Under the pieces are notes generated by a model. That model ran no database searches and was not told where the DNA came from. It saw only the letters and a list, made by a program, of their open reading frames with translations. A program made the translations under genes and the position numbers. From Escherichia phage vB_EcoS_FP: a stretch of 43,757 nucleotides of DNA. Position 1 is the stretch's first letter; each line of letters begins with the position of its first letter. This document shows positions 25,722 to 43,695 of this stretch, piece by piece. The stretch lies in sequence record MT682706.1; one strand, given 5' to 3'.

Positions 25722-26000
25722 TTGATAGGCAAAAACGATATGACTTATCACCTGCCAATGCATATGATTACCTCATCGAAAGCAAGCAACCAGAGAGACA
25801 CAGAAATGACCTACTACATTATCAAAGAGAAAAACAACGCACTATTCGGCGACTGCTACTTTGGTGGTCCCGCTGGATACACAACGAATAAGAACGAGGC
25901 AGACCGATTCGAGACTAAAGAAGAAGCCAGAGATGTACTGACCGGTTACTTCACTGAGGAAGATTTGAAATCGGTTAAGATTGTTAAGGTTAAGGATTGA
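25722..26000 (+). CDS. hypothetical protein (start uncertain)
   Basis: ORF track. Confidence 0.45.
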   Translation: MIGKNDMTYHLPMHMITSSKASNQRDTEMTYYIIKEKNNALFGDCYFGGPAGYTTNKNEADRFETKEEARDVLTGYFTEEDLKSVKIVKVKD

Positions 26001-26224
26001 TTAAGATGAAAACATGTGAAGAGAATTTTATATCACTAAATGATTTTATTGGTGATGATTTTGACTATTCTGATGTAATTGTTACATGGACTGCTGGAGG
26101 AGACGTTTTTTCAGATATGCTGATTTATAGTACAGACTATAGCAACTATCATTGGGAAGAAGACGAAGAATACGAAGAGGCTAGACTTTATTATTCTGAA
26201 ATCATTAACGTTAAGAGCGTTTAA
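25997..26224 (+). CDS. highly acidic small protein (75 aa)
   Basis: ATGA overlap; D/E-rich (EEDEEYEE); immediately upstream of exonuclease. Confidence 0.5.
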   Translation: MIKMKTCEENFISLNDFIGDDFDYSDVIVTWTAGGDVFSDMLIYSTDYSNYHWEEDEEYEEARLYYSEIINVKSV

Positions 26225-26228
26225 GAAA

Positions 26229-27212
26229 ATGACATTTACCGTATACACACGAGAAGAGCTATCAAACTCGGAGTACCACGCTGAAACTGACCACATCTCA
26301 GGTAGCTCACTTGTCGAGATTATTCAGGGTTCACCAGCTAAGTGGAAGTTCAAGCAGCGCAATAATGACAGCAGGGCGCTTAAGTTTGGCACGCTGAGTC
26401 ACACTTACATCCTGGAAGGTGACATGTTTGATAAAAAATACCTGCGAGCAACAGACCTTGATGCAATTGAAGGCTTAATTACAAGCCAGGCTGGATTAGC
26501 AGCAGCTCTGAAAAAAGTTGGTGTAGCTGGCACGTCAGGGAAGGGGTATAGCGAGCTAGTAGAGATGATGTATCGCTCTGGCGAGGATTGGGATGTTAAA
26601 TGGTTAATTGAGCAGCAGGAGAGCGCACAGGCTCTTATAGAGGGTAAGGAGCTAGTTAGCGCAGAAGACTACGACAAAGTGGTGGCGATGCGCGAGGTTC
26701 TTTGCAATATTCCGGCTTACAATGCGATCATTAATAGCGAGACAGCACAAAAAGAGCTATCAATATTCGGCGAGATTCTAGGTGATGAAGATAATCCCGG
26801 TGTCGGCGTTAAGATTCGAATCGACCATGTTGATGTTGTTGATGGTGTTGTTTATATCACAGATTACAAGACGACAGCAGACGCAAGCCCTGAAGGATTC
26901 GGTAAGTCAGCATTCAAACATGGATACCTTGCAAAAATGGCTCTTCAGCGCGATCTGTTTGTGAAGGCATTCAACGAGAAGAGAAAGGTTGTTGTGAGAT
27001 TGCTAGCCCAGGAGAAGGTGGAGCCATACCTACCAATGTCTTACACGCTAACAGATGAGCAGCTTCGCATTGGACGACTACAATACCTTGAAGCACTTGC
27101 CACTTACAAAAAGTGCAAGGAACTAGATATCTGGCCTGGCTACTCGAATGGCATTACAGAGCAAGAGCTATTAGTTCCTGAGTGGGCTATTAAACAGTAT
27201 AAGGAAATCTAA
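26229..27212 (+). CDS. PD-(D/E)xK family exonuclease (YqaJ/lambda Exo-like)
   Basis: Block IRIDHVD...VYITDYKTT resembles the D..(D/E)xK nuclease core; position upstream of ERF and SSB. Confidence 0.55.
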   Translation: MTFTVYTREELSNSEYHAETDHISGSSLVEIIQGSPAKWKFKQRNNDSRALKFGTLSHTYILEGDMFDKKYLRATDLDAIEGLITSQAGLAAALKKVGVAGTSGKGYSELVEMMYRSGEDWDVKWLIEQQESAQALIEGKELVSAEDYDKVVAMREVLCNIPAYNAIINSETAQKELSIFGEILGDEDNPGVGVKIRIDHVDVVDGVVYITDYKTTADASPEGFGKSAFKHGYLAKMALQRDLFVKAFNEKRKVVVRLLAQEKVEPYLPMSYTLTDEQLRIGRLQYLEALATYKKCKELDIWPGYSNGITEQELLVPEWAIKQYKEI

Positions 27213-27283: not shown

Positions 27284-27739
27284 TTGATTATGTTAAAATT
27301 AGAGCACGTCAATTTCCCAATCACGTTTAACAGTCATGGAAATGGTGAGATTACTTTCAACACAAAAGATTATGGGTTGTGGGCAGATGGTGAAGTTTCC
27401 ACTATTGACCTGGATCATTTCATTAAACAACACAACATAAAGAACCCCAATAACTCACGCAAAAAAGATTACTATTACTACAGTATTAGTAATGAACAGA
27501 ATACACACAATACATCTATACAGTATGCTCCGATCGAGAATATGCCAATTGGAGCAACTTTAAAAGGTGTGCAGCTTGATGTTGAATCATGGTTAGAGAT
27601 TACCATAGAGCCTAAATCAATAGAGGTGTGCGAAGATGTAGTAAAACTTACATCACATCACGGCACCATTGGTAATAAGACCGAAAATCGTGGAATCAGC
27701 ATTAAGCGCGGAACGCTTGTCCGCTACGATGTTAAATGA
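27284..27739 (+). CDS. hypothetical protein (151 aa), cassette flanked by promoter modules
   Basis: ORF track; RBS AAGGA. Confidence 0.55.
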   Translation: MIMLKLEHVNFPITFNSHGNGEITFNTKDYGLWADGEVSTIDLDHFIKQHNIKNPNNSRKKDYYYYSISNEQNTHNTSIQYAPIENMPIGATLKGVQLDVESWLEITIEPKSIEVCEDVVKLTSHHGTIGNKTENRGISIKRGTLVRYDVK

Positions 27740-28980: not shown

Positions 28981-29005
28981 AAAGCCCCTTTCGGGGCTTT
29001 TTTAT
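28981..29005. terminator. bidirectional intrinsic terminator
   Basis: AAAGCCCCTTTCGGGGCTTTTTTAT between convergent ssb and tailspike. Confidence 0.75.
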
Positions 29006-29008
29006 TTA

Positions 29009-31525
29009 TTAAACATAGCTGTTTACAAAAGTAATTTTTCCTCCAGGTCTTTTATATGAGTAGGAGTAGTTCTTATTCTCAGGAAGAATAATATTAGGTG
29101 AACTATAAGACAAGGAAAGAAAAGGAGCATCAAACAGGTATTCGTTTTCCGTCATTATTGCGTATGTTGAACTTAGTGAGCTATTGAATCTAACAGATGA
29201 ACCAATTAAAAACCTTGTAGATGAGCCAATCAATCTTATTGCCGATAACTCATCAGTTCTTGGATTAACACCCCACTCATCAATAGTGCAGCAATCAACT
29301 GATCCACTAGAGTTTCTTAGTCTAAAGGCGTGCCCATTAATACCATTTATAACACCACTAGAAAAAGCAATTGAATTACAGTTGTAAGCATCAAGAAAAA
29401 CATCAGTTCTTGATGTTGGTGTTGAGTACGAGCCCTTACCTAAAGCGTCGAAGCTACTACATACAATCCTATCCGCATTTACAGCTTTTATGCAAACCAT
29501 GTTTGACTCAATAGTTGTCATTGAGTGAACAAAGTGAGCGTTTGAAATTTGAACACCAGAAACCCTCCTTGTGTCATTTCCAGATATTAGAAGTATTGGA
29601 ACTGACGAATTTGATGTATTTGTTGTTTCACCGATGTATATGTTTGACATGGCTGTGTTTATATGATTAGTTTCATCATCTTGCGGCTCAATAGCTATAG
29701 CTCCGACATCCATACCCCCATTGCAAAACAAATTGTTTACCCTGTTACCTCCAGCGGAAAGTCTAAGAGGTACAGATCCGCCATAAATTTCGACCGTATC
29801 AATAACACTATCAGAGTAAACCCTAATTCCACCACCCGAAGCGAATTTTGCAGGGTCTGATATATCCGTTGCATTACAGTAAATTCTCTCAAATCTTGAT
29901 AGCCCCTGACCTGAATATATAAACCAAGTATTGAATCGATTCCCTGATAAATCCCTATACTCCCATCCACCTCCAGATTCATGAAGTATAGCGTGCTGAC
30001 AAGACCATTCACCATCAAATGAAATTCCCTCAAACTTAACTGCGTCTACTCCACTAAGTCCTTTATTTGATGTGAATATTGATCTTTGATTTGGTGTGGC
30101 TGGTTTAATTATCGTCGACCCTAAATAAGCCTGATTCCCACCCTTTCCAAGAAATTTAACCCCAGAAGCTACTTGGTTTAGCTCGATCTCCGATGTTCTT
30201 ATCACTCCAGCAGGAAACTCCAAAACCTTAACCCCTGCGTAAATGGCTTTAATTATTGCATCCTTGTTATCAGCAACATGTACTCCGCCACCGTAAGATT
30301 CAATCTTTGATGATATTGGCCTTAGCTTCCATTTTTCATCTAATTCTGGAGATGATGGAAGCACCGAGCCTTCAGTTATCTGCCCATCATATGAGTATTG
30401 ATTACCATTGTAATTAAATGACTGATAGTTTGATGTCAGCTTCTTACCTTGCGTGAAATCCCCAGATGAAAAGTACCCATTAATCTTATTAATAGCAGCA
30501 TCAACATCTTGCTTCGAGTAAACATCAAGATTAGTTCTTGCTAATGACTTATTTGCAACATCAGAGAGATTCAATGACTTTTGAAAAGTCTCATTTTTTG
30601 AGTAAACATCAAGCAAACCCCTAACCCTTATAGCAGAAGAGCCACCAGCAGCAGCATCTCCACCTGGAACGCTTAGAAGCTCCCTTACATAAAAACTCCT
30701 AGAACCAGTAGCTCCAGTAAAGGTAATTTCCGCAACCCTAAAAACTGCGTTTGAGGCTGTAGAAGGAGAAACTCTTACTACGTTACTTCCATTAATACCG
30801 CGCGTCGCAAGAACATCAATACAAATAGTAGTGTTTGTCGCCGGGAACATTGAGCTTAAGTCTGCTGGAATGTTAACCATGTTGTCAATTCTGCACTGGT
30901 AACTACCACCTGAATAAAATTGCATTGTCTGCCAGTCAAGTGATCCTAGCAGTGGTGTTGTAGTACTTCCTATGCCGTGTTCTGCAAAGTAAGCCACTGC
31001 TGCGGTATTCCCAGCTGCATTTATTGCAGCAACGGTTCTTTTGTATGAGTTCTGTGCATTATTGCTGGCGCCAACGGCAGTTGATGCGCTTTCTGCGGCA
31101 GCAACCTGACTAGCAAGAGCCTCCGCAGCTCCAGTAGTGGATTGATTTGCAAGTTTCTCGAAGCGAGGCCAGTCGAAAGTGTCTTGACCAATAAATTGCA
31201 GCAATCCTTCGATGGATGTCTCCTTGGACTGGTAGTAACGCAAAGTCTCTGCTACATCCTGAGCCAACCCCTGAACGGTAATTCCATCGTGCGCAAGAAT
31301 TGCATAACCAGTTCCTGCAGGAACAGTTTCAGAATTAGGGTTGTAAACATTAATCTGCGTGTCGCTAATGATTTCAGAGATGGTGTAAATCTTTAGCGGG
31401 TTAGTTTTGAAAATGATAGTTGCACCTACGCGAATCAGTGTAAGCGGTGCTTTCCATGTTGTCCCCACGCCAGTTACCTCGCCAGTTGCGGCCAGCGACG
31501 CTGTTCCTAAGTCATAAATTGCCAT
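29009..31525 (-). CDS. tailspike / lateral tail fibre (beta-helix, candidate polysaccharide depolymerase)
   Basis: About 838 aa from ATG 31525 (RBS GGAGAC); conserved-looking N-terminal anchor, Ala-rich coiled segment, long Ser/Gly/Asn/Thr-rich repeat-like region. Confidence 0.65.
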   Translation of the reverse strand: MAIYDLGTASLAATGEVTGVGTTWKAPLTLIRVGATIIFKTNPLKIYTISEIISDTQINVYNPNSETVPAGTGYAILAHDGITVQGLAQDVAETLRYYQSKETSIEGLLQFIGQDTFDWPRFEKLANQSTTGAAEALASQVAAAESASTAVGASNNAQNSYKRTVAAINAAGNTAAVAYFAEHGIGSTTTPLLGSLDWQTMQFYSGGSYQCRIDNMVNIPADLSSMFPATNTTICIDVLATRGINGSNVVRVSPSTASNAVFRVAEITFTGATGSRSFYVRELLSVPGGDAAAGGSSAIRVRGLLDVYSKNETFQKSLNLSDVANKSLARTNLDVYSKQDVDAAINKINGYFSSGDFTQGKKLTSNYQSFNYNGNQYSYDGQITEGSVLPSSPELDEKWKLRPISSKIESYGGGVHVADNKDAIIKAIYAGVKVLEFPAGVIRTSEIELNQVASGVKFLGKGGNQAYLGSTIIKPATPNQRSIFTSNKGLSGVDAVKFEGISFDGEWSCQHAILHESGGGWEYRDLSGNRFNTWFIYSGQGLSRFERIYCNATDISDPAKFASGGGIRVYSDSVIDTVEIYGGSVPLRLSAGGNRVNNLFCNGGMDVGAIAIEPQDDETNHINTAMSNIYIGETTNTSNSSVPILLISGNDTRRVSGVQISNAHFVHSMTTIESNMVCIKAVNADRIVCSSFDALGKGSYSTPTSRTDVFLDAYNCNSIAFSSGVINGINGHAFRLRNSSGSVDCCTIDEWGVNPRTDELSAIRLIGSSTRFLIGSSVRFNSSLSSTYAIMTENEYLFDAPFLSLSYSSPNIILPENKNYSYSYKRPGGKITFVNSYV

Positions 31526-35675: not shown

Positions 35676-35876
35676 ATGGCTACTATCCTTACTGGTAAAT
35701 TCTACGAATCACGCAAAACTGGTTATGAATATGAATTAGGAATTACTCCTGATTCTTATATTCTGATTGATGTTGAAGATGCAAACTATGCATTCGAAGT
35801 TAGCCCGACATTCAAAGATGATCTGGAAACTGTTAAAAACGCATTCGGCGAAAAATTTGATGAGGTATCAGAATAA
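35676..35876 (+). CDS. hypothetical protein (66 aa)
   Basis: ATG 35676 with RBS AGAGGGAGAAA. Confidence 0.5.
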   Translation: MATILTGKFYESRKTGYEYELGITPDSYILIDVEDANYAFEVSPTFKDDLETVKNAFGEKFDEVSE

Positions 35877-36097
35877 TGGCAATCTTTACATTTGAAAATC
35901 AATGGGAAGTCTTTAAGCTAATGGCAGTTGAGGAACTAAAGAAGTCTGGATTTAACAAAAACCCCTGGGACTTAGCATTTTGCCTTGATATGAGCTTTGA
36001 AGAAGATTACCTGAACACAGATGTAGAAACATGGCGTGACCGTATGGTTGCAGACATTGCAGAAATGAAAAAAGATTGCCCAGAGGATTTTGAATAA
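35876..36097 (+). CDS. hypothetical protein (73 aa)
   Basis: TAATG overlap. Confidence 0.5.
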   Translation: MAIFTFENQWEVFKLMAVEELKKSGFNKNPWDLAFCLDMSFEEDYLNTDVETWRDRMVADIAEMKKDCPEDFE

Positions 36098-42930: not shown

Positions 42931-43072
42931 GTGCCTTTTCTATCGCCTTAAGCATGATTTCGTGACTTTCCAGTAAGTCCTCTCGGAACCAATCTCCGCA
43001 AGGCCATCCCTTACCGCTGTATGCGCTTACGACCTCAAGGTCGAAATAATTTATCTCAGATGGCAGGAGCAT
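42911..43072 (-). CDS. small hypothetical protein (53 aa)
   Basis: Own translation: MLLPSEINYFDLEVVSAYSGKGWPCGDWFREDLLESHEIMLKAIEKARNSTNC; ATGA overlap with upstream gene. Confidence 0.4.
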   Translation of the reverse strand: MLLPSEINYFDLEVVSAYSGKGWPCGDWFREDLLESHEIMLKAIEKARNSTNC

Positions 43073-43269
43073 CAGTAGTCCTCCTCATCTTCTTGTTCAA
43101 AGTCCCACACAATGTATTCGCCCAATCTTTGAATCTCAGCGCCAGAAAGAAAGACACCTAAAGCGAACGATCTGTCTTCATCAGTCTTAAAATACTCCAA
43201 AGGGTATCGTTCGTAAAATTTATTAATTAAATGTGCAATGTCAAACTTATCTGATTGCTTAATCATCAC
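43072..43269 (-). CDS. acidic small early protein (65 aa)
   Basis: ORF track; acidic C-terminus FEQEDEEDY. Confidence 0.5.
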   Translation of the reverse strand: MMIKQSDKFDIAHLINKFYERYPLEYFKTDEDRSFALGVFLSGAEIQRLGEYIVWDFEQEDEEDY

Positions 43270-43515: not shown

Positions 43516-43695
43516 TCAAATAAATGGTAGGCATTCGGCGCATCCAAGTCCATCACAGCACAGGAATTCATCCTCTGACTGGAATTGCTTAGCCAAGTCG
43601 ATGTCCAGCTTTCCGAGCAACACAAGTTCTGTGTAATCTTCGTTAAGCCCAATCAGTGCGCATTCGTTACGTAGTTCATCTTTATCAATCTTCAT
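43516..43695 (-). CDS. acidic small protein, first gene of minus-strand early operon (59 aa)
   Basis: Own translation: MKIDKDELRNECALIGLNEDYTELVLLGKLDIDLAKQFQSEDEFLCCDGLGCAECLPFI; RBS GAGGGGATAGAT; net charge about -9. Confidence 0.5.
   Translation of the reverse strand: MKIDKDELRNECALIGLNEDYTELVLLGKLDIDLAKQFQSEDEFLCCDGLGCAECLPFI

Follow-up and report, generated by a model that had tools for sequence, protein, structure and literature searches.

Genes of the recombination operon

We analysed a 43,757-nt stretch of DNA (hereafter the window) from Escherichia phage vB_EcoS_FP (MT682706.1), a T1-like siphovirus of the Drexlerviridae (Braunvirinae). Within the phage collection it is most closely related to BEK6 (88% identity in this region) and JeanPiccard/Bas02, and the literature on vB_EcoS_FP consists of genome announcements only. 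The locus under study is a recombination operon in which a small acidic gene lies between a conserved 64-aa gene and the gene for an Exo VIII/RecE-like nuclease, with genes for an Erf-family annealing protein and a single-stranded DNA-binding protein (SSB) further downstream (Table 1). A preliminary description of this DNA had placed the acidic gene directly 5' of a phage PD-(D/E)xK exonuclease, and this arrangement was borne out: the gene for the exonuclease (motif IRIDHVD...ITDYK) has its ATG at 26229, after a gap of 4 nt from the stop codon of the acidic gene. The Exo VIII, Erf and SSB neighbours were also as claimed, with a 151-aa open reading frame (ORF) between the exonuclease and Erf genes that the description had not mentioned.

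Table 1. Features of the recombination operon and occupants of the same slot in related phages (positions are those of the window unless a locus is named).
Feature	Position	Strand	Remarks
Conserved 64-aa gene	25806..26000	+	phrog_5247/35664, no annotated function
Shine-Dalgarno-like AAGGA	25992..25996	+	9 nt 5' of ATG 26006; within the last codons of the upstream gene
Acidic orphan gene, 72 aa	26006..26224	+	ATG 26006, TAA 26222-26224; identical to QLF80594.1
Exo VIII/RecE-like PD-(D/E)xK nuclease (DUF3799), 327 aa	26229..27212	+	phrog_412, E 1.3e-96; PF12684, E 1.3e-19
151-aa ORF, phrog_7116 (no annotated function)	27284..27739	+	GC 37.5%; second accessory slot, between exo and erf
Erf-family single-strand annealing protein, 216 aa	27863..28513	+	PF04404, E 2e-26; phrog_155, E 4e-47
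SSB, 138 aa	28556..28972	+	phrog_44, E 2.3e-30; C-terminus ...QSQFNDDIPF
Bidirectional intrinsic-terminator-like hairpin	28981..29000	.	8-bp stem with 5 GC pairs, T-runs on both sides; closes the operon
phrog_1222 slot occupants	L006:2776-3000, L010:2771-3000, L023:12789-12983		same slot as window 26001-26228

The 64-aa gene opens the operon in Braunvirinae and Rogunavirinae, and exo is the first operon gene in Tunavirinae, Tempevirinae and Klebsiella relatives. The AlphaFold2 (AF2) model of the 64-aa protein (pLDDT 83) has a strand-strand-helix-strand order; its fold relatives in BFVD were solely uncharacterised small proteins of many unrelated phages, and a search of the PDB with this model returned no fold match and no functional lead. 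The slot between exo and erf, filled in the window by the 151-aa ORF, contains nothing, small ORFs or a Dam-type methyltransferase in relatives (a Dam-type N6-adenine methyltransferase in JeanPiccard and locus L003, a 49-aa DUF7336 protein in L032). Dcm-like and Dam-like methyltransferases occupy other variable slots of this operon, and the variable genes surrounding it form a functional mixture, including a Rha antirepressor, a homing endonuclease and methyltransferases. E. coli SSB recruits host proteins through a canonical acidic C-terminal tip, and the DDIPF tip of the phage SSB suggests that this protein plugs into the host SSB interactome. Promoter and terminator scans gave no internal signal of note in the operon, and an Rfam scan of the operon region gave no RNA element.

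Start codon and coding status of the acidic gene

The acidic gene had been described as encoding 75 aa from a TTG at 25997. This longer ORF is present, in the same frame and ending at the same TAA (26222-26224), but the ATG at 26006 is the better-supported start, which is a probable correction of 9 nt. The BEK6 annotation and every homologue call, in five clusters, give a protein of 72 aa from the same methionine (MKTCEENF...), and homologous loci have the same layout of AAGGA and start codon. The deposited protein with the matching sequence, from Escherichia phage vB_EcoS_FP, is annotated as 'hypothetical protein FP_0041'. The 75-aa form could nevertheless be made as well, since a TTG or GTG lies exactly three codons 5' of the ATG in all four loci compared. 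The stop codon of the upstream gene (25998-26000) lies 5 nt before the ATG, and such tight gene packing is compatible with the translational coupling that had been proposed for the acidic gene.

Comparative sequence analysis confirmed the acidic ORF as a genuine gene: it occupies the same slot in other carriers, with a ratio of nonsynonymous to synonymous divergence (dN/dS) of 0.2–0.76. An ORF overlapping it on the minus strand (26111-26296) was rejected, as no annotation supports it.

Composition, conservation and predicted structure of the acidic protein

The high content of aspartate and glutamate noted in the preliminary description, including the segment WEEDEEYEEARLYYSE, is a property of the 72-aa product, which is the most acidic in the window. 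D and E make up 18 of its 72 residues (25%), against three K or R, giving a net charge of about -15 at pH 7; its mass is 8.5 kDa and its computed pI sits at the calculator's floor of 4.05. Among 71 non-overlapping ORFs of the window it is the extreme, with a net charge per residue of -0.208, or about 3.2 standard deviations below the mean (-0.008, sd 0.062). The protein is also rich in aromatic residues (13, or 18%). Across the family, 46 of the 72 positions are invariant, among them 11 of the 13 aromatic and 12 of the 18 acidic residues. Small size, a high proportion of D and E and a very low pI, all present here, are traits of the DNA-mimic class by the criteria of Wang et al., as cited in PMC9836394.

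Structure prediction gave no usable model. In the Uversky charge-hydropathy plot the protein lies a little to the disordered side of the boundary (H 0.45 against 0.488). The AF2 model, built from a six-sequence alignment, reached a pLDDT of 47 and tentatively shows three strands and one C-terminal helix; a fold search with this model gave no matches.

Three more small ORFs of the window are acidic (43516-43695 and 43072-43266 on the minus strand, 35876-36097 on the plus strand), with a charge per residue of -0.14 to -0.15. They belong to the conserved families phrog_9053, phrog_27229 and phrog_2676, whose function is unannotated, and judged solely on charge they are just as good candidates for DNA mimicry. 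Acidity by itself is thus not diagnostic.

A rare family found in phages

A word-indexed search of 5.8 billion proteins recovered an acidic family that consists of five clusters; identity is at least 78% throughout, and the frame always spans exactly 72 codons. Nothing real beyond this family emerged when 1.84 billion representatives were searched exhaustively with a profile; one candidate, P0007 (685 aa, nine stretches), was dismissed as a tandem-repeat artefact whose score was summed from weak matches to 'YLDEIINIK'. DNA scans of IMG/VR, JGI metagenomes and 185,579 genomes, together with a tblastn search of plasmids, returned just near-identical phage copies of the gene, and the identical protein occurs on at least 23 metagenome contigs with differing flanks. 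In a tblastn search of 50,697 phage genomes (E ≤ 10), BEK6 was the sole match. Homologues of the adjacent exonuclease are present in 1361 phage records, a single one of which (BEK6) has the acidic gene. Over 99% of the phages that share this recombination module carry neither the acidic gene nor a positional analogue, which indicates that the module does not need it.

Family libraries gave little. Pfam and NCBIfam yielded no family match, the one Pfam result at E ≤ 1 being DUF7663 (E 0.065, below cut-off). PHROGs gave a single weak match, to phrog_8166 (E 0.01–0.012), a family of unannotated function. The sequence search of the PDB gave no significant match (best E 0.24). P22 Abc2 and other anti-RecBCD and anti-restriction families did not match the protein in Pfam, PHROGs or NCBIfam, libraries that are assumed to contain models of each such inhibitor family.

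A swap slot directly 5' of exo

The acidic gene lies between the 64-aa gene and exo in 14 of 14 carrier loci, namely the window, BEK6, two Logan contigs and 10 further metagenome contigs, although the flanks are mosaic and the accessory surroundings differ. The same position is empty in most relatives, with a 3-nt gap in JeanPiccard, RobRod40, Sd1 and several IMG/VR genomes, and in other Braunvirinae (the Veterinaerplatzvirus group) it holds an unrelated phrog_1222 protein of 63–65 aa (MKAFIDINKSPYND...), whose function is unannotated. This makes the junction a swap slot that occurs in at least three states: empty, the acidic gene, or phrog_1222.

The genes meeting at this junction end alike. 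The 64-aa gene, the acidic gene and the phrog_1222 gene terminate in V-K-type codons (GTTAAGG, GTTAAGA and GTGAAAATAAA, respectively; window 25980-26000 and 26205-26228, and just 5' of 3001 in L006 and L010), and these ends double as the Shine-Dalgarno sequence of the following gene. Speculatively, the shared GTTAAG(G/A) microhomology may mediate insertion, loss or exchange of the cassette.

Base composition sets the acidic gene apart from its surroundings. Its GC content is 32%, compared with 43–46% in the flanking genes and 44% in the window, which puts it at the 0.6th percentile of windows of the same size; GC at third codon positions (GC3) is 25% versus 46–51% in the flanking genes. Its divergence also follows a different course. 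Between two carrier lineages, dS is 0.16–0.37 in the acidic gene versus 0.84–2.6 in the 64-aa gene, exo and erf, that is, 3–10 times lower, and dN (0.08–0.12) is comparable to that of the flanks. The resulting dN/dS, below 1 in all pairs, is 3–5 times higher than the 0.03–0.16 of the flanks. From these values we infer that the cassette spread between lineages after the flanks had diverged and that the protein evolves faster than its neighbours. This pattern of GC3 and divergence is the signature expected of a mobile, host-interacting gene.

The preliminary description had treated the acidic gene as a member of the recombination module in the manner of lambda gam. That reading is weakened by the presence of the gene in just one of 1361 records, the variability of the slot, the outlying composition and the separate history. 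Sequence comparisons instead point to a rare, recently mobile, horizontally acquired and dispensable accessory cassette that is not integral to the recombination module.

Comparison with known inhibitors and DNA mimics

Lambda Gam (PF06064), an acidic accessory protein, is a DNA-mimic inhibitor of RecBCD and also an inhibitor of Kiwa; it serves as the functional model for the hypothesis of the preliminary description. Its gene is located directly before bet in transcription order, next to the exo/annealase pair, much as the acidic gene is located directly before the exonuclease gene. The proteins themselves differ: Gam has 138 aa, is all-helical and carries -0.058 charges per residue, versus 72 aa and -0.208 for the acidic protein. 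A blastp comparison with lambda Gam (J02459) gave an E value of 34, and PF06064 was not matched in the Pfam scan.

T7 gene 5.9, an annotated RecBCD inhibitor, offers an even closer analogy than the lambda gam and P22 abc genes named in the preliminary description, as it lies directly 5' of the gene 6 exonuclease, which it overlaps, and the acidic gene likewise directly precedes the Exo VIII gene. The D and E content is 25% in both proteins, at -0.154 charges per residue in gp5.9 and -0.208 in the acidic protein. However, gp5.9 is shorter (52 versus 72 aa), has fewer aromatic residues (6% versus 18%) and is conserved in its phage group, whereas the acidic gene is a rare cassette. In a two-sequence database, blastp aligned the acidic protein with gp5.9 (V01146) at 23.5% identity over 34 aa (E 0.51), which is not significant. 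Gam and gp5.9 are helical dimers, unlike the three strands and C-terminal helix tentatively predicted here; yet gp5.9 starts with a beta element at its N-terminus and continues into a helix (PMC9836394), an order that loosely resembles the tentative strand-then-helix prediction for the acidic protein (pLDDT 47). Gp5.9 and Gam have no common sequence or fold, and small size with acidity is an accepted hallmark of DNA mimics (PMC9836394). Absence of homology is therefore what would be expected of a further member of the RecBCD-inhibitor class.

The charge density of the acidic protein is comparable to that of anti-restriction mimics of the Ocr/ArdA type, although it is much smaller. These mimics are early-expressed accessory anti-defence proteins, and the operon in relatives of the window phage also carries anti-restriction genes, of the methyltransferase type. 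No match to an Ocr/ArdA-type family was found for the acidic protein in Pfam, PHROGs or NCBIfam. HK75 Gp33 and Oad2 are likewise encoded by small, uncharacterised, swappable genes of recombination operons (10.64898/2026.07.10.737580); they manipulate RecBCD or defence systems and reside in temperate lambdoid phages, whereas the acidic gene resides in virulent Drexlerviridae. The same preprint makes the case that new RecBCD inhibitors, along with anti-immunity genes, are concentrated at recombination loci. As far as sequence evidence goes, the acidic protein is tied to no characterised inhibitor or DNA mimic.

A possible decoy and its alternatives

With its variable slot and foreign composition, the acidic gene looks like a swappable anti-host accessory gene. 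By analogy with the inhibitors above, we tentatively favour a role as a DNA-mimicking decoy that counters a DNA-processing enzyme of the host, a reading that we regard as quite possible though short of probable. The cassette would have entered the Exo VIII-Erf-SSB operon between its first gene and exo, and would be co-expressed with the operon. Its acidic, aromatic-rich product may then occupy the DNA-binding surface of the host enzyme, and the decoy would thereby protect phage DNA ends or intermediates of recombination and replication. RecBCD, the target suggested in the preliminary description, is the single most likely one, but taken on its own an unlikely choice; restriction or BREX-type nucleases come next, at a slightly lower likelihood. 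The Dcm- and Dam-type methyltransferases in the other variable slots of the operon make an anti-restriction target about as plausible as RecBCD. Mimicry of the SSB C-terminal tip, suggested by DDF and DFD motifs in the acidic protein, was set aside because tip function requires a free C-terminal phenylalanine carboxylate.

The operon location might instead be incidental. The protein could serve host takeover or some accessory role that has nothing to do with nucleases, for instance as an inhibitor of RNA polymerase or of a nucleoid protein, as a decoy for an Abi sensor or as an agent of superinfection exclusion; T7 Gp2, gp5.5 and T4 Arn are examples of such host-takeover inhibitors. The alternative occupant of the slot, phrog_1222, is unrelated to the acidic protein in sequence, so the slot does not dictate function, and the GTTAAG(G/A) microhomology could simply make the junction permissive for insertion. 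The functional mixture of the variable genes around the operon agrees with this. Extreme negative charge still favours a nucleic-acid-binding partner, however, and no particular alternative target has positive evidence, which leaves an incidental location conceivable but rather unlikely in our judgement. Its close linkage to exo could also mean that the acidic, aromatic protein, resembling ssDNA, binds a recombination protein of the phage itself (Exo VIII, Erf or the OB-fold of SSB), tuning resection or annealing or serving Exo VIII as a nuclease-immunity or chaperone partner. The gene lies just 4 nt 5' of exo and keeps its linkage to the 64-aa-gene/exo junction despite mosaic flanks; the phage SSB retains its DDIPF tip, and acidic, aromatic tails of the SSB type bind DNA-binding clefts. 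Yet Exo VIII proteins 90–92% identical work without the acidic gene in JeanPiccard, RobRod40 and many other phages, and the history of the gene is decoupled from that of exo and erf, with a foreign base composition. We consider such a modulator distinctly improbable.

Rarity and repeated absence from close relatives would also suit a passenger gene that lacks function or is decaying, whether selfish or neutral, and that is on its way to being lost, as would the dN/dS of up to 0.76 in one pair and the charge-hydropathy value on the disordered side. The conservation of the gene argues the other way: the frame is intact at exactly 72 codons in all clusters, 46 of 72 residues and 11 of 13 aromatics are invariant, dN/dS stays below 1 in every pair, and the same protein recurs on at least 23 contigs with differing flanks. 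Chance persistence of an open frame of 72 codons in DNA of 32% GC is itself unlikely, and a passenger is in our view very unlikely.

Roughly half of the small ORFs of T1-like phages have no assigned function. In the literature searched, no RecBCD or restriction countermeasure has been described in T1-like phages or other Drexlerviridae, methyltransferases aside. If the decoy reading is correct and RecBCD or another nuclease is inhibited, the 72-aa protein would add a new, compact scaffold to the DNA mimics, with possible uses in recombineering, in cell-free expression on linear DNA templates and in probing defence systems that guard RecBCD. The recombination operon of a virulent siphovirus would then be an anti-defence hotspot, as lately proposed for lambdoid phages. 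If no nuclease is inhibited, the acidic gene would be one more orphan accessory gene.

Chi sites in carriers and non-carriers

The octamer Chi (GCTGGTGG) occurs in the window at 812, 12166 and 17365 on the plus strand and at 30642 on the minus strand, four sites against 0.86 expected; two of 100 shuffled sequences reached four. To our knowledge the lambda genome has no Chi sites, in contrast to the four of the window phage. We compared five Braunvirinae genomes (the window, L011, L022, L023 and L024). Chi sites co-oriented with the structural genes numbered 3, 1, 6, 4 and 3, against about 0.55 expected in each. Summed over the five, there were 17 co-oriented sites versus about 2.8 expected, and 2 in the opposite orientation versus about 2.0 expected. 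This enrichment could stem from selection for Chi, in which case RecBCD would be at work during infection; alternatively, codon usage (GCT GGT GG) could account for it.

Co-oriented sites number 3 and 1 in the two genomes with the acidic gene and 6, 4 and 3 in the non-carriers, a difference that is not significant (two genomes versus three, with sites shared by descent). The counts in carriers, lowest or equal-lowest of the five, agree with a relaxed dependence on Chi, in a comparison of two with three non-independent genomes in which codon bias is uncontrolled. Carrier genomes still have Chi sites, which we count against a RecBCD inhibitor. The fullest version of the RecBCD hypothesis is that the acidic protein founds a new family of DNA-mimic RecBCD inhibitors, carried on a mobile cassette, that it is the first RecBCD countermeasure in T1-like phages, and that it has freed its carriers from dependence on co-oriented Chi; we regard this as doubtful.

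One of the five genomes, L024, is deposited as 'Campylobacter phage A110b' (MG065688.1, UNVERIFIED). It is a typical E. coli-type member of the Braunvirinae, with an Exo VIII 91% identical to that of the window, and its assignment to a Campylobacter host looks doubtful.
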